From a plasmid: a stretch of 64,000 nt of DNA. Under the pieces are notes generated by a model, which saw only the letters and a program-made list of their open reading frames with translations, did not search any database and had not been told where the DNA came from. The position numbers and the translations under genes are program-made. The stretch is taken from the sequence record NC_009705.1, one strand, 5' to 3'. Below are positions 1-7,466 of the stretch, piece after piece; positions within the stretch are counted from its first letter, which is position 1; the number at the start of each line of letters is the position of its first letter.

Positions 1-112
1 TCTAAAGTGACAAAGAGTTAAAGTCAAGAATCATTTGTTTAATGGATTTTTATTTATATATAGTTCCCCGACGACTGCACAGGAAGGCTCAGTCTTGTGC
101 TTCCAGACCATG

Positions 113-198
113 CGTCCGCTCTTGGCACAGAGCTGCCTGTCAGATTAGGTTAAGCTCTGTATCGTGACAATGCCAGAGCAAGTCTGAGCTAATACATA
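113..198. repeat. ~85-bp direct repeat, copy A (copy B at 5702-5786, ~94% identical, same orientation)
   Basis: Shared string tggcacagagctgcctgtcagattaggttaagctct.tatcgtgacaatgccaga.caagtctga.ctaataca read at both sites. Confidence 0.8.
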
Positions 199-253
199 TT
201 AGCTTTACAGAAGCTTGGTAATGTCTGCACACTTCACTCAAATCAAATTAGAA

Positions 254-278
254 ATGCCACTTAGTGTGGCATTTTTTC
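254..278 (+). terminator. Rho-independent terminator-like hairpin (atgccacttagtgtggcat + T-run) just after repeat copy A
   Basis: 9-bp perfect stem, 1-nt loop, followed by TTTTTT. Confidence 0.5.
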
Positions 279-389
279 GTATGGCTTCCACAAAAATCAG
301 TGCTTACCCTATCCTTTCGGGCCAAACTAGCTTCTTACTAAGCATCTGTCCCAACAAATATCAGACCTAACGTTTCCTCCATTAAAGCG

Positions 390-776
390 TTAGACTTTGA
401 TGAACCCATAGAAAACAAAAGCATTTGCAAGAAATAAAATAAAACCCGTTAATAAAAGTGAAAACTCTACCTTAATCCAACGCACCTTATCCTTGGGTTG
501 ATTCCTGATAAAATAATAATGATCTTGATTCATCTTTCTAACAAAAATGCTTTTTATATTGAAAATCAATGGCCGTAGAAAATAAATGTCCTTTTGAAAA
601 GTGAAGAAGATCCCTCCAGCTTGAGAAATAACCACTTCATCAGGCAAGCATCCGAATTCCTTATAAAACTCGTCGCAGAGTAACTTATGCTGCTTTTTGT
701 GCAATGTGGAGTAAGCAAAGGCACCAAATATCGCCAGTACGCATAGTGGAGTCAGGATCATAAAAATAAGTATCAT
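390..776 (-). CDS. Small polytopic membrane protein, candidate immunity protein for the upstream glycine-zipper toxin
   Basis: 128 aa with about 3 predicted TM helices. Start is 2 bp after the toxin stop (operon arrangement). Confidence 0.45.
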   Translation of the reverse strand: MILIFMILTPLCVLAIFGAFAYSTLHKKQHKLLCDEFYKEFGCLPDEVVISQAGGIFFTFQKDIYFLRPLIFNIKSIFVRKMNQDHYYFIRNQPKDKVRWIKVEFSLLLTGFILFLANAFVFYGFIKV

Positions 777-777
777 G

Positions 778-2190
778 TTATTTACCTATGGTCTCGTAAA
801 TAACGTCACCAAAATACTCACCAAAGGATGATACCGTTTCACTACCTACATAACCGCCAGCACCACCGAGTATAACCCCACACGCGAGTACTCCCGCCCC
901 TCCCGCTGCCATAGTTGCTGCGCCTAAAGCGACCGTACAAACACCCATGCCAATCGCGCCTCCGGCCAGCCCTCCGGCTATACTTCCTGTGAAACTTCCC
1001 GTTTCTGTATATTTCTTCTTAGAACACTCATCCTCTCTACCCACTGAACATGCTTCGTTAACTTCATTGATAGAATGAAATGCACTAAATCCAATGCCCA
1101 CATATCCGGCATACTTCATTAACTTAACGTATTTAGCTGCACGTTCTATGTGAGTCGCATAACCGTCAATATCATTTATTCCGGTCTTATTCCACTCATG
1201 AGTAATAGATTTTGATGATAGCCCAAGCGCATCTTTTATTTTTGCATACTCGCCGAACTTCATTCCTTTATTCAAAAAACCAACTTTTAATACGGTATTA
1301 AGTTCCTTGAATAACTGACTACGCCTGACGTAAAACTGCTCTCCAATTAATGCCCCCCGTGTTAAGTAAGCATTTTTATAAGTGTCTTGGATCTCACTTA
1401 GGATTTTTTGAATGTTCTCAAAATACTTACCAACAGGATCAGCAGCAAGACCTATCCCTTTGTCAGCAAAGCTACTGAAGTTGGCGATAGTAGCGTAATG
1501 CTGATGCAAGAAATTTGCTTCTTCGTGGGATAAAGGGGCTAACGCAGCATCTATTCGCTCTTTAGCAGCTTGCATGTGGGCAATTTGCATGCTGTTTTGC
1601 TTGTCCGGATCAACCAGCAGCATAATTGAACCCGCCTTAAACTCATTGCCACTTCCATTCAATGATCGGTAGAGTTCTCGCGTCCCAGCGGGAGGTTCCT
1701 TGTTAAACAACCACGGTTCATACGATTCAGTCACCGAACCATAAGGGAGTACACAAAATCCGGCATCAACGGGTTCACGCTCTGATTGATGTGGTTTTGA
1801 ATCTTGTTGAGTGGGTGCATCCTGTGCTGGCTTCTTGGCAGCTTGTGCATGTTGCTCTGGCTCCGCTACTGTCGATGATGCAACTGGTGCCGCTTTTGCA
1901 ACATTGCCCTGATAAGGGCCATGAGAGGCCCACGTCTGCGAGGGTATAAAAAAAGCCTTACATGGACACGTCGAACGGCTATACAGCGTACTAGCCACAT
2001 AATGGCCATGCACGGATTCACCCGGATGTGCTCCCCCCACGCTGTACATACCAGAGTGTTTTCCACAAGAAACCTTACTGCCATTCACCGCCACGGGATT
2101 ACCCGCGAACTGTCTTTCTGGCATACCCTCATGAACTAACCCACCACAACTTGTCTTATCGCCCTTCACTATCCAGTATCCTATCGCCAT
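778..2190 (-). CDS. Polymorphic toxin: N-terminal PAAR-like domain, C-terminal glycine-zipper membrane-disrupting domain
   Basis: N-terminus IVKGDKTSCGGLVHEG...NPVAVNGSKVSCGKHSG is PAAR-like. C-terminus GSIAGGLAGGAIGMGVCTVALGAATMAAGGAGVLACGVILGGAGGYVG is a glycine-zipper 2-TM motif typical of pore-forming effectors. Confidence 0.5.
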   Translation of the reverse strand: MAIGYWIVKGDKTSCGGLVHEGMPERQFAGNPVAVNGSKVSCGKHSGMYSVGGAHPGESVHGHYVASTLYSRSTCPCKAFFIPSQTWASHGPYQGNVAKAAPVASSTVAEPEQHAQAAKKPAQDAPTQQDSKPHQSEREPVDAGFCVLPYGSVTESYEPWLFNKEPPAGTRELYRSLNGSGNEFKAGSIMLLVDPDKQNSMQIAHMQAAKERIDAALAPLSHEEANFLHQHYATIANFSSFADKGIGLAADPVGKYFENIQKILSEIQDTYKNAYLTRGALIGEQFYVRRSQLFKELNTVLKVGFLNKGMKFGEYAKIKDALGLSSKSITHEWNKTGINDIDGYATHIERAAKYVKLMKYAGYVGIGFSAFHSINEVNEACSVGREDECSKKKYTETGSFTGSIAGGLAGGAIGMGVCTVALGAATMAAGGAGVLACGVILGGAGGYVGSETVSSFGEYFGDVIYETIGK

Positions 2191-2202
2191 TACCTTGCCC
2201 CC

Positions 2203-2805
2203 CTAACACAAGGCCGGTAACACAGGCACCAGAAAATTATCCGGCATAGGAACACTATCGCGGCTAACCAGCATCGCCATCGACTGCGGCGTACTGACGA
2301 TTTCATCGCCGTTATCAAGCACACTGCCCACCAATGCAAAAGAAACCCCATTACTATGAGTGGCAGCATCGCCTGCACCACTTATTATCCTTGCTCGTCT
2401 GCCATCAGGGTAGACAACACAGTCCCCTACCAACGCTTTATGGATTTCCGAACCATCATCCAACTGAAATGCAGCAGGGCTACTTGCGTTCACTACCACA
2501 CCACCAAGACGAGTCCGTGATCTCTCAGTCGCAAATCGCCACAAACCGTTTACTGGATGCTGCCGCGTCCATGCTTCTTGAGCCTCAATCTGCTCCCGCG
2601 ATCCCTCCGTCATTGCGGAAAGCTCTTCCGCTGAGAAGGGGGATATATCCATTGAGGCCAACAACTCCGCACTCAGTTCGTTGGTGTACTGCTTTTCCAT
2701 GCTTTTTCCTTGTACATTCGGGGGATAATGCCCCATCTTACCTGCAACGTGACTTAAGTTAAACTTATCAGAATTCAGCGCACTAGCCATCGGCTCCAAC
2801 GCCAT
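2203..2805 (-). CDS. Hypothetical protein with C-terminal PAAR-like repeat (GDCVVYPDG...GSVLDNGDEIV). Possibly a split N-terminal part of the toxin or an accessory protein.
   Basis: 200-aa ORF ending 13 bp before the toxin start. PAAR-like Gly/Asp spacing in the C-terminus. Confidence 0.35.
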   Translation of the reverse strand: MALEPMASALNSDKFNLSHVAGKMGHYPPNVQGKSMEKQYTNELSAELLASMDISPFSAEELSAMTEGSREQIEAQEAWTRQHPVNGLWRFATERSRTRLGGVVVNASSPAAFQLDDGSEIHKALVGDCVVYPDGRRARIISGAGDAATHSNGVSFALVGSVLDNGDEIVSTPQSMAMLVSRDSVPMPDNFLVPVLPALC

Positions 2806-2959
2806 TTTCTATGGCCAGTTGTAGCCATAACCGCGTAGTCAGTTCTCTTGGCCAACTAGGTCATATGATAGAATATGGAAAATCTACATTGAGGAGTTAT
2901 TAGGCCGATCACAGCTCATTTACGAGCATTCAGCGCAAACTTATAATATCGGAGGCAGT

Positions 2960-3409
2960 ATGGATTTTCTGTACAGAGGCTATAACAGCACGATGACATT
3001 TAAAGAAGCTATGACGCCTAAATCGCCTTCACCCACGCCAGAAAGTGGTGCTGAATTCGATGATGATAGGGTTGAGTGTGGTGATCCTGATTTTACGTTT
3101 GGTCTCTCAGTGAATAATACTATTCACTCGCATGAGTATGGCGGGAATGGCGAGGCAACGGCTGGTATATCAACTACTCTGCATTTTGAAATGGCTAAAA
3201 AATATGCGCTTGGACGGAGTTCATTTGCATCTGGATATGTCATTAAAATGTCAGTTTCAGCACTTCGACATTCTGGCGTAGATATACATCCGATTAAGGG
3301 TAGGTTGACTACAACAGCCATATCTGAAGACGATGAGCACTGGATTTACTTTAATGGTCACTTCCCAGAAGAAGCCGTCGTAGAACTTATAGCTGTCTTT
3401 CGGGACTAA
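2960..3409 (+). CDS. Hypothetical protein (149 aa)
   Basis: Intact ORF divergent from the toxin operon. No recognisable motif. Confidence 0.35.
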   Translation: MDFLYRGYNSTMTFKEAMTPKSPSPTPESGAEFDDDRVECGDPDFTFGLSVNNTIHSHEYGGNGEATAGISTTLHFEMAKKYALGRSSFASGYVIKMSVSALRHSGVDIHPIKGRLTTTAISEDDEHWIYFNGHFPEEAVVELIAVFRD

Positions 3410-3517
3410 AGACACTCCTGAAACCAAACTTATGCTTGGCCAACTATAACTGACATTTTTTTGCTCATAATGTCAGTTAATATTATCCCCATTTGTGCAA
3501 TTTCTTACTCTAAGTTC

Positions 3518-3700
3518 CTAGATAACTCGTAGGGTATCCACAACACTTGGATTTCTTTCTATCAGGCATAGCATTCTTAACGCAATGCCACTTGGTACAC
3601 GGCAATCAAGTTCCCAGCGTTGAACAGTTGCAGCGCTAGCACCAATCATTTTTGCAAATTCATACTGACTCATACCAACACTTTTGCGGATTGACTTCAC
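3518..3700 (-). CDS. XRE-family helix-turn-helix transcriptional regulator (60 aa)
   Basis: MSQYEFAKMIGASAATVQRWE is a canonical XRE HTH. Confidence 0.7.
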   Translation of the reverse strand: MKSIRKSVGMSQYEFAKMIGASAATVQRWELDCRVPSGIALRMLCLIERNPSVVDTLRVI

Positions 3701-3846
3701 GTTAGGTTTACACTGCTGAGTAAATCATCAAACAATTTCTTTTCCATAAATCTCCCTTCGTTATGATCTTCTTTTCCTTATTATCTATAAAGTACCGTCT
3801 GGATATTATATAATAATATATCCAGAACTCACTTTCGGGTTTTCTC

Positions 3847-4530
3847 ATGGAACTAGACGATAAAATTCTTACCAGAATAAAGAAATTGAAAGCACTATTA
3901 AGTAGCTCTAACCCTAATGAAGTTAATGCCGCAATCAAGCGAATTAATACTTTAATGCAACAATACGAGCTTACAAATAAAGATGTAGAACTTTCTGATA
4001 TCTCGGAAGAGACAGCAGAGTGGTCGCCCTCGAAATCCAAGAAAATACCCAAATATCTGGCTTTTCTGGTGACAGCGATATGCAAAAACTTTGCTGTAAA
4101 ATCAATACGCTATGGCGATGGGAGAACTTCGTTTATTGGCACAGGCGAGCGCCCCGCTATTGCGGCTTACGTGTATTCAGTTCTTGCCAGACAATTAATT
4201 ACAGCCAGAAAAGAATACATTGATAACTTACACGGCAATACTTCAAAATCAAACAAAACGCGCTATGCCGATAGCTTCGCGGAAGGTTGGACATCAGAAG
4301 TCTATAATAAAATAGTAGACTTCTCTGACGAAAATGAAATTTCAAGGATTAATGAGTGGATTACACTTAAATTTGGAAAATTGGAGGCCAGTAAAGTCCG
4401 AAAAGCAGGCGAAAGTTCGAGACGAATTGAGACAAATAAAGCGATCCATGAATATGCGGGACGTGTATCTGCTAAACATGTTGTTCTTAATCATGGTGTA
4501 GATGGAACTGAAATTGATTTACTTAACTAA
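3847..4530 (+). CDS. DUF2786-like protein (N-terminal KLKALLSSSNPNEVNAAIKRINTLMQQY motif), common on plasmids and ICEs
   Basis: N-terminal motif matches the DUF2786 signature (K..LA.S.NP.EA..A...A..LM). Divergent from the XRE gene. Confidence 0.5.
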   Translation: MELDDKILTRIKKLKALLSSSNPNEVNAAIKRINTLMQQYELTNKDVELSDISEETAEWSPSKSKKIPKYLAFLVTAICKNFAVKSIRYGDGRTSFIGTGERPAIAAYVYSVLARQLITARKEYIDNLHGNTSKSNKTRYADSFAEGWTSEVYNKIVDFSDENEISRINEWITLKFGKLEASKVRKAGESSRRIETNKAIHEYAGRVSAKHVVLNHGVDGTEIDLLN

Positions 4531-4670
4531 TATCACATCATGAATGTGATGTCGCCTATAAACTTCAAAATATGGTGTATACGCTCAGACTTGATTTGAC
4601 AGGTTTCTCTGGCAGAACGCAATCTAATCTGACAGTCTGCTTTGAGCGAGGAGCGGGCCTAATGACGGCC

Positions 4671-5564
4671 TCAATATAAACTTCCCTGTTTGTTCTGCTG
4701 CATATGCAACCAAATTTCTTCGAAAACATCCCCGTCAGCATATCCCATATAAGCTGTCGAAAACCTATCAAATATTATCCGTAAGGATTCCTTGCTTTTT
4801 AAAGAAACATTAAGAAGGTTGCGCGCTTTCTTAAGAAAAAGTTTTTTATCTTTTGAGTTCATATCGTCCCATGTCTTCCCCAACTGTTGGATAGCTTCAG
4901 CAATTAATTCTTCTTTTCTCGTCTTCAAGGTTTTTCCTTTATGGTTTTTTTGCATAGCTTCATAGAAAGCTCTATGAAACATATAATCGGCATTGTACGT
5001 ATAAATTTTAGATGGACTCAAAAGATTTGCGGAGGTTGATAGATTACCAGTTGAGAACAAATTTAAATAGAATGTATTTGTTGCACTTTCAATATCTCCA
5101 GCGCTTATTTCATCTAAAGGTGCAATGCAAAAATAAACTGGTGTGAAATTTTTAATGGTGTGATTATTATGGATAAAGTGATACCCGTGACAGGTTCCGA
5201 TAAATGATATGAGTTGGTTATTCATTAACTTATTGATTGATCTCAACTCATCTGCAAGTTCTTGCCAAGATATGGTGCTTTTATCTGGGAGTTCCATTGA
5301 AAGCGGGGAGCCATGAGCTTCAATGTGAATGATTGGAAGAAATGAAAGCTCTAATTCAGGCTTAAAGCTGTCTTTGATAGTCTGGATTATGCTTCGAAAT
5401 TCTTCTTCGTTTTGAGTTTTTATTAAGGTAACGCCACAACCTAACCCACTATCAGTTAAATTTTCACATAGCCGTCTGGCTGTTTGGTATTCATCATCGG
5501 GTAAACAGTCGATAATAATAAGTTTGTTGAATGTTAGGTTTTTATAAAATGTATTATGCTGCAT
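4671..5564 (-). CDS. Hypothetical protein with caspase/CHAT-like His-Cys dyad signature
   Basis: LSFLPIIHIEAHGSP and LISFIGTCHGY are about 52 aa apart, matching hhH.a.HG ... C spacing of caspase-like peptidases. N-terminal Rossmann-like strand KLIIIDCLPDD. Confidence 0.35.
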   Translation of the reverse strand: MQHNTFYKNLTFNKLIIIDCLPDDEYQTARRLCENLTDSGLGCGVTLIKTQNEEEFRSIIQTIKDSFKPELELSFLPIIHIEAHGSPLSMELPDKSTISWQELADELRSINKLMNNQLISFIGTCHGYHFIHNNHTIKNFTPVYFCIAPLDEISAGDIESATNTFYLNLFSTGNLSTSANLLSPSKIYTYNADYMFHRAFYEAMQKNHKGKTLKTRKEELIAEAIQQLGKTWDDMNSKDKKLFLKKARNLLNVSLKSKESLRIIFDRFSTAYMGYADGDVFEEIWLHMQQNKQGSLY

Positions 5565-5701
5565 TTTCCTTCTTCCTGTTAGAACTTGCCAAAAATTTAT
5601 ATCGATGTACTGCCAAATGTTTTAAACATATTAATGATCATTCATCGGTAGTATCTTAACATTTTTGGTAATTACTTGTCACAAACTTAAAGTTGCCGCT
5701 T

Positions 5702-5786
5702 CTGGCACAGAGCTGCCTGTCAGATTAGGTTAAGCTCTATATCGTGACAATGCCAGATCAAGTCTGAACTAATACACATAGGGTTT
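5702..5786. repeat. ~85-bp direct repeat, copy B (see 113-198)
   Basis: Near-identical to copy A with about 5 mismatches. Confidence 0.8.
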
Positions 5787-5808
5787 ATATTGAGGCTGGC
5801 TAAATCTA

Positions 5809-6030
5809 TTAATCCCGCTCTCGCTTCTTAGCTTGCTTAACAGCCTCTTCAATGATTTCTTCTTCACTTAAGCCAGTAGCATACGCTAATGCACTAACTG
5901 TAATGTCACCGCCTTCAATGCGCTCTCGGACATCATCTGGAGACATCCTATCCAAATCATCATATGCAACCGAAAGTGCATCAGCAGTACGTGATAATAG
6001 TTTTCTACTCTCAAAACTCAGTCTTGCCAT
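5809..6030 (-). CDS. Small acidic protein (73 aa), paralogue of degenerate copy at 56490-56718
   Basis: About 80% DNA identity with the second locus, including the upstream leader. Confidence 0.6.
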   Translation of the reverse strand: MARLSFESRKLLSRTADALSVAYDDLDRMSPDDVRERIEGGDITVSALAYATGLSEEEIIEEAVKQAKKRERD

Positions 6031-6128
6031 ATCAAAAACCTCTTGTAGTTAACAACTTTTAGTACCACTTTTAAAATTTTGGTAACAGTTGAATACAGGA
6101 TAAAGTTAAAACTCGCCTCCATTGGTTC

Positions 6129-6526: not shown

Positions 6527-6661
6527 GGATATCCAATGAGTATACAACACTAACAGATTAAGCCATAGCCTAGCGAAACAAGCAATAAGTGTTTTTAAAT
6601 AAATAGGATACTCAATGAGTATACATTTTGATTGACAGTTAAAAACATTAAGACTAGATTT
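6527..6661. promoter_or_regulatory. Divergent control region: two 20-bp direct repeats GGATAYYCAATGAGTATACA (6527-6549, 6606-6628) plus TTGACA-17-TAGATT promoter for the 6693 operon
   Basis: Repeats and sigma70-like hexamers read directly. Region lies between the divergent AbrB-like gene and the plus-strand operon. Confidence 0.45.
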
Positions 6662-6692: not shown

Positions 6693-7466
6693 ATGAATTC
6701 ACATACACACTGCACTTTCATTATCCCTTGCTCTTTGATGCAGGCAAACAGCGCGAAATACGCTTTAAACCTCATTAAGCGCATCGCTATGAACTCCCAG
6801 TTTTTAAAAGAATTACGTGTGCGTGAGACATCAATTTCAAATCAAATTGTAAAAGAACTCCTCAGTAATGAAGGTAGATTCTCAGAGAATCAACTTGAAA
6901 ATGCGGATCAGATACGCCGTTATTGCCTTGGTTTCAACTTTATGTCTGAAGTCATTAATACGGACAAGGTAACAGGCTTAATGTTGCGGTTTTCAGATAG
7001 TGATTCTACAGGTTCTCTTTATGCATTCTCACCGCTCAATGCGGCACTATTTACTCAGGCTGTGCTAAGTGTTTGTGGCTTAGACCACTGTGTAGAAATT
7101 ATTTATCATCAGCTAAGTTGCAACCAAGATCTTAAGGCGGGTTGTTTTACAGTAGATAAGAATGAACTAGACCACTTATCACTGACTGAGCTGTTAAACA
7201 GCGCAGGTGTAGAACGCCAATTCGATCACTACATTATTAGCTTAGCCTCACAAAACAATTTACTCCGCTCTTCTATTCTTTATCGTTGTAGTAAAAATAG
7301 TGATCCAACACGTTTTCTATCCCATGCAATAAAAAAGCATGCCTTTTTTGACTCCACAATTAAATCATTTGCAGACAGTGTTAATTTTAAAGAAAACATC
7401 TCGATGAAGAAACTCTGTATTTTTGATTACAAAATCCTTGGGAAGTATATTCCTACCATTCATTAA
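6693..7466 (+). CDS. Hypothetical protein (257 aa), first gene of 6-gene operon
   Basis: Intact ORF with tight spacing to downstream genes. Confidence 0.45.
   Translation: MNSHTHCTFIIPCSLMQANSAKYALNLIKRIAMNSQFLKELRVRETSISNQIVKELLSNEGRFSENQLENADQIRRYCLGFNFMSEVINTDKVTGLMLRFSDSDSTGSLYAFSPLNAALFTQAVLSVCGLDHCVEIIYHQLSCNQDLKAGCFTVDKNELDHLSLTELLNSAGVERQFDHYIISLASQNNLLRSSILYRCSKNSDPTRFLSHAIKKHAFFDSTIKSFADSVNFKENISMKKLCIFDYKILGKYIPTIH

Follow-up and report, generated by a model that had tools for sequence, protein, structure and literature searches.

Inverted repeats of the P2 Z/fun family on a Yersinia-type conjugative plasmid as candidate ends of mobile cassette carriers

The 64,000-nucleotide stretch of plasmid DNA analyzed here (sequence record NC_009705.1; "the window" hereafter), of which positions 1 to 5,808 are shown above, carries three copies, designated A, B, and C, of an element of approximately 85 to 95 bp that is widespread in enterobacterial plasmids, phages, and islands. 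By sequence, these copies are new members of the inverted-repeat family known from the Z/fun region of phage P2. We consider it probable, from comparison of related loci, that they are the ends of mobile cassette carriers, that the 24-bp core at the cargo-facing side of each end is a site-specific crossover site, and that each carrier was inserted by a transposition-type event. The window itself yields a modest result: this Yersinia-type conjugative plasmid carries a single one-gene unit that looks intact and half of another, and no small RNA (sRNA).

Inverted ends, target duplications, and family membership

Copies A and C align at 116-207 and 5696-5787 in the same orientation, with 90% identity across 92 nt, and share without mismatch a 35-nt core for which two matches were found against none expected from 100 shuffles. 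A preliminary description of this DNA, made from the sequence alone, had pointed to these two near-identical repeats and placed them outside coding sequences, and both observations hold (neither copy lies within an open reading frame [ORF] of at least 50 amino acids with family support). It did not include a third, inverted copy on the minus strand at 4576-4656 that is ∼77% identical to the other two. A profile made from many copies scores A, B, and C at 86, 76, and 80 bits, respectively (the two P2 copies score 78 and 48 bits), and gave no matches beyond these three over the whole 64 kb.

Similar sequences were found in 98 plasmids (Klebsiella, Salmonella, Pantoea, Rahnella, Yersinia, and others), in 35 complete Escherichia coli genomes, where they lie within islands adjoining integrases and tRNA genes, and in 30 phage records. 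BLAST matches included phage P2, which has two copies around Z/fun, between the tail fiber assembly gene G and the sheath gene FI, and GenBank entries AJ512677 to AJ512683, which annotate copies as the "left" or "right inverted repeat" of P2-EC Z regions. The window copies are homologous to these annotated repeats, and B (minus) and C (plus) form the same kind of inverted pair around a variable ORF, here at 4671-5564. As restated in PMC8987985, Nilsson, Karlsson, and Haggard-Ljungquist (2004, Mol Biol Evol 21:1), from whom these GenBank entries come, offered site-specific recombination as the cause of the P2 Z/fun repeats; our comparison with that work draws on the GenBank annotations and this restatement only. 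A pattern scan of one genome per species recovered 48 loci, mostly in Enterobacterales, with some in Shewanella and Pseudoalteromonas and one in a Pseudomonadales metagenome-assembled genome. The same pattern gave at least 120 matches in viral contigs, mostly contigs of P2-like prophage size; all viral-contig figures below, whether for pairs, classes, duplications, or cargo sides, hold among the matches listed and are independent of the genome and plasmid set. A pattern built on the terminal motif would recover only about one-quarter of the known copies.

A complete unit, as seen in more than 80 related loci, consists of two inverted ends of ∼85 to 95 bp each around 1 to 6 kb of variable cargo. 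Neighboring copies lie 1 to 6 kb apart in the order minus then plus in 21 of 21 pairs from genomes, plasmids, and phages, and adjacent full-end pairs in viral contigs show the same order without exception (62/62). Each end turns its CCGCT side toward the cargo and its ...CTAATACA side outward, with the outer ∼60 bp holding repeated TGTCAGAT motifs up to the terminal ...CTAATACA. The preliminary description, which offered recombination boundaries of a mobile cassette as one of its two readings, was right in kind (the repeat does bound variable cargo in many plasmid, phage, and island loci) but not in geometry: the units are bounded by inverted ends of two classes, described below, rather than by direct repeats, and the unit in the window runs from B to C (4576-5776), not from A to C.

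At their outer termini the ends read TGTATTAGCTCAGAC... and border on a 7-bp direct duplication, which is perfect in 10 of 15 well-defined pairs and retains six of seven positions in two more; viral contigs supply five further perfect duplications. The duplicated target varies from site to site, the third base being T, and the fifth A, in 9 of 10 sites each (NNTNANN), and no further conservation was found in the flanks of ten target sites. We take such a duplication to be the mark left by a transposition-type insertion whose stagger is 7 bp. Terminal inverted repeats together with a duplication of fixed length, as in a DDE transposon or mobile insertion cassette, are present in the relatives; in the window unit, only 5 of the 7 positions agree. 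Sequence conservation is strongest at the inner palindrome, not at the tip.

The B-C unit is a one-gene carrier inserted 46 bp past a DUF2786 gene. Copy A would, by analogy, be the T1 end of a second carrier (the T1 class is defined below) lying to the left of the window; pYR7 carries a complete 1.28-kb equivalent of its presumed unit.

Two spacer classes and the point of cargo exchange

The cargo-proximal 24 bp of each end read GTCCGCTYY, a 6-bp asymmetric spacer, and ARAGCGGAC, the two 9-bp arms being inverted with respect to each other. Spacers fall into two classes, TGGCAC (T1; copies A and C in the window) and TCGCTC (T2; copy B), with 51 and 38 instances, respectively, in the first data set. 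Every one of the 34 classifiable viral pairs joins a T1 to a T2 end, the exact combination TGGCAC/TCGCTC recurs in 43 viral and 11 genome pairs, and no homotypic pair (two T1 or two T2) was present among the classified viral and genome pairs. Minor spacers (TAGCAC, TTGCAC, TTGCTC, and AGGCAC, in viral contigs L068 onward) also combine one ...CAC with one ...CTC type in the pairs observed, and spacer position 5 may be the discriminating base. One Serratia P2-like prophage (L060) has a perfect 17-6-17 palindrome around TCGCTC, and its 17-bp perfect arms leave the central 6 bp as the only asymmetric part. Inverted arms around a short asymmetric spacer, of 6 to 8 bp, are the arrangement looked for in the core site of a tyrosine recombinase.

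"Short" cores that lack the outer ∼60 bp also occur inside units, back to back between adjacent cargo genes, in the order T1 core, 16 to 18 bp, inverted T2 core (seen in L046, L054, L002, L023, and L061). A unit can thus contain several cassettes in an array, every one of them enclosed by a T2 core and a T1 core. The back-to-back gaps end in GCTGGAG or a close variant in four of six cases. We note that the 18-bp gaps (L046, 2633-2650 and 1869-1886; L054, 2960-2977; L002, 6172-6189), which end in GCTGGAG, GCTGAAG, or GCTAGAG, contain the word CTGAGCT. As the outer terminus (TCTGAGCTAATACA) has this word too, full ends and short junctions may be related to each other. Separately, an optional module of ∼45 nt (TGACCTGCTCCCCGTTGATTAACA...TGATGTTAGCAAC) lies directly on the cargo side of the inner arm at about 13 of 62 ends, in both classes, and is sometimes found without a complete end (for example, L028, 1626-1668; L048, 3605-3563; L037, 4921-4880; L019, 1295-1244 and, on the minus strand, 7849; and L046, 2568). 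We consider a promoter, an additional binding site, and a remnant as possible interpretations.

The position at which cargo is replaced could be mapped in ten same-site comparisons, in which the same flanks and the same duplication enclose unrelated cargo. These comprise an E. coli island versus Pantoea and Enterobacter, two Pantoea/Pectobacterium plasmids, P2 versus P2-EC46, a conjugative-element site in four genera, and pYR7 versus a Yersinia enterocolitica plasmid (L067). In all ten, similarity extends from the flank across the outer part, R arm, and spacer and is lost at the last 2 to 3 bases of the inner arm. The P2 Z/fun site gives the same picture at greater depth: with 19 different cargo sides at T1 and 17 at T2, column entropy is near its maximum on the cargo side, intermediate at arm positions 8 and 9, and zero from the first spacer base outward. 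Shared sequence on the cargo side amounts to only ∼10 to 15 bp, so RecA-type recombination could not place all crossovers there, and junctions lying exactly at the arm/spacer border argue for site-specific cassette exchange rather than homologous recombination. Read from natural variation, this junction position is the strongest argument for the recombinase model, and the crossover at or in the spacer that a tyrosine recombinase would make is located here by comparative mapping only.

The cassette of the window appears to be mobile in its own right. Homologs of its 297-amino-acid (aa) protein occur across Enterobacterales with 51 to 92% identity, and those bounded by cores share the arrangement of the window: T1 core, ∼130 nt of conserved upstream sequence, gene, 12 to 13 nt, T2 core. 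In a Serratia P2-like prophage the homolog sits in the portal-gpA hotspot between a full T1 end and a short T2 core, and in a Pectobacterium conjugative element it is enclosed by a short T1 core and a short T2 core, after which comes a T1 in back-to-back position. The cores flanking a Cronobacter homolog have decayed, and none were seen around a homolog on a Klebsiella plasmid. The Y. enterocolitica plasmid contig (L067) carries a whole 1.2-kb unit that is 93.75% identical to window positions 4577-5776 at a different site, within a perfect ATTTAGT duplication; at that same ATTTAGT site, pYR7 has a HEPN-domain gene between the same two ends. We also observed T1 and T2 ends bounding the portal-gpA (old/tin) hotspot in L060 (3773-6063), P2 itself having ends only at Z/fun, which shows that both classical P2 hotspots can carry these sites.

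We hypothesize that a site-specific recombinase, presumably acting in trans, makes its crossovers at the 24-bp cores; the arm-6 bp-arm geometry suggests that a tyrosine recombinase is the most likely kind. With unlike T1 and T2 spacers, each end would recombine only with its own class, and a cassette would consequently be neither inverted nor lost within its carrier; it would be exchanged for another cassette by T1×T1 plus T2×T2 crossover or, by an alternative route, gained or removed as a circle through a single crossover. Such a mechanism would be a natural counterpart of recombinase-mediated cassette exchange. The carrier would have arrived at each site through a transposition-type event, which would explain the 7-bp duplication. 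More tentatively, we suggest that these loci may together represent a natural two-site cassette system with heterospecific T1/T2 sites, a trans-acting recombinase, and a transposon-like carrier. Among Enterobacterales and some marine gammaproteobacteria, it would be common to P2-like phages (at both hotspots), conjugative plasmids and elements, and islands linked to tRNA genes.

Several observations weigh against this model. Pfam searches of the interiors of large or single-ended units and ORF clustering over 59 loci revealed no recombinase or transposase, whether inside the units or regularly next to them. P4-type integrases do adjoin the unit in eight loci, but they are 34 to 73% identical to each other and probably only mark a favored target. 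All evidence for use of the sites is comparative, the T1/T2 split could have been inherited from one ancestral element rather than kept by function, and the central dinucleotide GC, common to both classes, would on sequence alone allow a serine recombinase. In the window, the duplication of the B-C unit is imperfect and both of its inner arms are off consensus (GCCCGC and TGCCGC), so this unit may be old or inactive; no clean empty site for it was found among the Yersinia plasmids compared. The unit interiors themselves contain diverse, often defense-type cargo (reverse transcriptases, HEPN proteins, a pPIWI-associated nuclease, HD and HATPase proteins, and Z/fun) along with unrelated IS3, IS5, and IS66 insertions, and no autonomous relative or transposase recognizing these ends was met among the interiors scanned.

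Competing explanations

The ends might instead be the terminal inverted repeats of a nonautonomous transposon whose cargo is swapped by homologous recombination within the ∼90-bp ends, the palindrome serving as a site for transposase or an accessory protein. Such an element would account for the inverted ends with their TGT...ACA termini, for the repeated subterminal motifs, and for the 7-bp duplications, which occur at many unrelated AT-rich targets, and a whole unit with both ends is found at two different sites. We nevertheless regard this explanation as unlikely, since the arm/spacer border is the single position of the replacement junctions, which are not scattered along the ends, in every same-site comparison and in the 19 and 17 P2 alleles, and short cores without the outer part still bound cassettes in arrays. 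Plain transposition would moreover give no purpose to the rule of one T1 and one T2 end, and the unit interiors yielded no transposase. It is far less probable that A and C bound an excisable 5.58-kb module containing the toxin/immunity genes, the XRE-type regulator, the DUF2786 gene, and the B-C cassette. Both are T1 ends with an identical spacer and R arm, and under the recombinase model such direct T1 repeats would be competent for deletion or circle formation. Yet the interval between them holds two outward-facing outer termini and a piece of plasmid backbone (3802-4532) shared with Yersinia plasmids, which argues that the 5.6-kb interval is not a mobile unit; outer termini lie inside a cassette in no related locus, and Yersinia relatives vary in 197-3801 without such sites on the right side. 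The self-contained 5.6-kb gene module of the preliminary description does not survive for the same reason, as the interval 197-4575 includes this backbone segment, which is syntenic with the Yersinia plasmids.

We think two further readings very improbable. One gives the ends no part in recombination and sees them as insulators or regulatory palindromes, structures that bind protein or block transcription and are retained where accessory genes begin or end, a notion that suits the nested palindromes, their position at gene ends (for example, directly past gene G in P2 and past integrase genes), and an enrichment of nearby terminators, but leaves the 7-bp duplications, the two-class rule, the short-core arrays, and the localized junctions unexplained. 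The enrichment is seen as terminator-like outward hairpins within 150 nt of 12 of 61 outer termini (L003, L012, L026, L029, L037, L006, and window 252-277) versus 14 of 400 random windows, and it may reflect insertion just past genes. The same count could be cited for the other reading, that copy A and the terminator downstream of it form an sRNA gene of ∼170 nt, as the preliminary description put forward, and that the other copies are paralogous RNA genes. Positions 114-280 do fold far better than shuffled sequences (z = −4.2), with the fold ending in the terminator hairpin, and at relaxed thresholds the Rfam family psRNA2 (RF02349) gives a weak full-length match that includes the terminator and a second weak match at copy C. 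These matches reach 21.6 and 15.5 bits against a gathering score of 65, however, and no Rfam family was found at the gathering threshold anywhere in the window; a literature search on psRNA2 returned nothing informative. In the psRNA2 consensus, CUGUCAGAUCAAAUCUGAACUA corresponds to the outer hairpin of these ends (window 138-196 and 5718-5776) and precedes a terminator, so that the match rests on the outer hairpin plus a generic terminator; a related element end may have served to build the family itself. Nested DNA palindromes would by themselves give a low folding energy, and the covarying pairs follow only the T1/T2 split; covariation in the long hairpin thus records one or two events and is not evidence of an RNA.

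The preliminary description placed the terminator immediately after copy A, and a strong hairpin with a T-run is indeed there, but it begins 56 nt past the element end at 196 and is not conserved beside other copies. Conservation across more than 100 copies stops sharply at ...CTAATACA (...ATACA), ahead of the terminator. There is no conserved promoter, and in or before copy A no promoter-like site was found on the plus strand except one at 7-34, which is not close. Copies occur in both orientations relative to neighboring genes and form inverted pairs with target duplications. The hairpin was found by our own hairpin scan and is absent from the list given by a consensus terminator scan; it could also end a minus-strand operon (390-2190).

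The coordinates of the ends, their parts, and the features discussed with them are collected in Table 1, and the surrounding genes can be placed against the plasmid backbone. Positions 3802-4532 and 6128 onward are 77 to 86% identical to MPF-I (Dot/Icm-type) plasmids of Y. enterocolitica and Yersinia ruckeri, while 1-3801 and 4533-6127 differ among the window plasmid and its Yersinia relatives. In the 390-3409 region, a minus-strand operon encodes two proteins with PAAR matches below the cutoff (2203-2805 and 778-2190) and a small, probably membrane, protein (390-776); it adjoins an ORF with a weak match to NarE-like ADP-ribosyltransferases (2960-3409). From sequence the region looks like a toxin/immunity set, and no type VI secretion genes were seen in the part of the window examined. 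Of the gene labels proposed earlier, XRE is upheld by a supported HTH_3 domain at 3518-3700 and DUF2786 (3847-4530) by the annotation of the Yersinia orthologue, PAAR stays below threshold, and "CHAT-like" is unsupported: the 297-aa cargo protein matched no family when scanned against Pfam, PADLOC, and NCBIfam, with HMG_box_2 appearing only as a subthreshold match.

Two repeats unrelated to the ends were also seen. A 23-nt inverted repeat with a 1-nt gap (3789-3835; AAAGTACCGTCTGGATATTATAT / ATAATATATCCAGAACTCACTTT) lies between the divergent XRE-type and DUF2786 genes and looks like an operator. A 20-nt direct repeat (6527-6546 and 6606-6625; GGATATCCAATGAGTATACA, 90% identical, 79 bp apart) lies upstream of a 257-aa gene at 6693-7466 and may be a regulatory site.

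Table 1. Element ends, flanking sequences, and associated features in the window
Feature	Position	Strand	Details
Copy A, T1-class end	114-196	+	Cargo and T2 partner expected left of position 1, by analogy with the complete pYR7 unit
Copy A, L arm	114-122	+	GTCCGCTCT
Copy A, spacer	123-128	+	TGGCAC
Copy A, R arm	129-137	+	AGAGCTGCC
Copy A, outer part	138-196	+	Ends ...CTAATACA
7 bp abutting outer terminus of copy A	197-203	+	TATTAGC; expected target-site duplication, partner off-window
Terminator-like hairpin with T-run, outside the repeat	252-277	+	AAATGCCAC TTAGT GTGGCATTT TTT; 11-bp stem when folded
Left 7-bp flank of B-C unit	4569-4575	+	AATATGG; 5/7 positions match right flank
Complete B-C unit, 1,201 bp	4576-5776		T2 end, one gene, T1 end
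Copy B, T2-class end	4576-4658	-	Outer terminus TGT at 4576-4578; L arm toward cargo
Copy B, core	4635-4658	-	Read on minus strand: GCCCGCTCC TCGCTC AAAGCAGAC
Cargo gene of B-C unit, 297 aa	4671-5564	-	Stop codon 12 nt from T2 core; 5' region toward T1 core
Copy C, T1-class end	5694-5776	+	
Copy C, L arm	5694-5702	+	TGCCGCTTC
Copy C, spacer	5703-5708	+	TGGCAC
Copy C, R arm	5709-5717	+	AGAGCTGCC
Copy C, outer part	to 5776	+	Terminal ACA at 5774-5776
Right 7-bp flank of B-C unit	5777-5783	+	CATAGGG

Significance and relation to known systems

Defense loci of P2-like phages are replaced very fast, and near-identical systems are found in plasmids and islands, with no mechanism named (PMC13586616, PMC9122126). 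These studies did not find transposable elements at the P2 hotspots, nor flanking homology on which homologous recombination could act, and a 2026 survey of P2 and P4 hotspots leaves open the route of exchange with other mobile elements (PMC13586616). The repeats described here go unmentioned in that work on P2 hotspots (PMC9122126, bioRxiv 10.1101/2024.10.15.618418, PMC13586616), which gives the exchange mechanism as unknown. Their anatomy supplies a testable candidate mechanism, at a minimum for the Z/fun hotspot and the corresponding loci of plasmids and conjugative elements: a 24-bp site that exists in two mutually incompatible versions, an exchange junction that has been mapped, and circular intermediates that are predicted. 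If true, the model would explain the swapping of defense genes between unrelated mobile elements and would add a third natural cassette system to integrons and dif modules. It would also provide a sequence tag for new accessory or defense genes, namely, whatever lies between a T2 and a T1 core, and a naturally heterospecific site pair for genome engineering.

The nearest relatives of the window copies by descent are the P2 Z/fun inverted repeats, with which they share homologous sequence, the inverted pair, variable ORFs, and an occurrence in enterobacterial plasmids and islands; the copies described here differ in sitting on a Dot/Icm-type conjugative plasmid. In outward form the carriers resemble mobile insertion cassettes, cargo-carrying miniature inverted-repeat transposable elements, and the ends of Tn552, Mu, and Tn7-type elements, which likewise have long inverted TGT...ACA ends, subterminal motifs, a target duplication, and no transposase inside. 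The duplication is 5 bp in Tn7, Mu, and Tn5053, however, and 7 bp here. Tn552 makes duplications of 6 to 7 bp and has ends longer than 100 bp. A 7-bp target is also mentioned for Tn552 in PMC12486829, besides which a literature search on 7-bp duplications found nothing relevant.

Several other site families were considered and set aside. The sfx sites of the Rci shufflon have only 6 to 7 nt, GTGCCA(A), in common with T1, and resolvase res half-sites, single-stranded-DNA promoters of plasmid leading regions, REP/RAYT elements, and IS200/IS605 hairpins do not agree in sequence or geometry. The ends lack the defining features of integron attC sites: neither the window nor most loci have an adjacent integrase, GTCCGCT palindromes form the boundaries, and the GTTAAGC of copies A and C falls in the loop region instead of at a boundary. 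Nor do they match 11-6-11 Xer/dif sites, as GTCCGCTYY arms stand on both sides of the spacer.

The integron cassettes recognized by IntI resemble the present ones in being small and mostly single-gene, with a palindromic site right after the gene, in forming arrays, and in entering as a circle by a single crossover, which is predicted here. The present cassettes differ in having no IntI or attI and no RYYYAAC/GTTRRRY boundary boxes, in carrying two different sites each, in lying in either orientation with their own upstream region, and in residing within carriers with transposon-like ends. The dif modules (pdif, XerC/XerD) of Acinetobacter plasmids are accessory modules between inversely oriented sites with a 6-bp center and encode no recombinase. 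Discrete modules, inverse sites with a 6-bp center, and the lack of a recombinase inside are shared with our units; in contrast, the arms here are unlike those of XerC and XerD (GGTGCGCATAA / TTATGTTAAAT), both arms are the same, and the two ends differ by spacer, not by the order of the arms. Engineered exchange between heterospecific lox or FRT sites also combines shared arms with differing spacers to obtain exchange without excision or inversion, but it is man-made, with 8-bp spacers and Cre or FLP, whereas this is a natural family whose activity we infer from comparison. In its working mode the proposed system is closest to integron cassettes and Xer-dependent dif modules, and in its two-spacer design it is closest to engineered heterospecific lox/FRT exchange.

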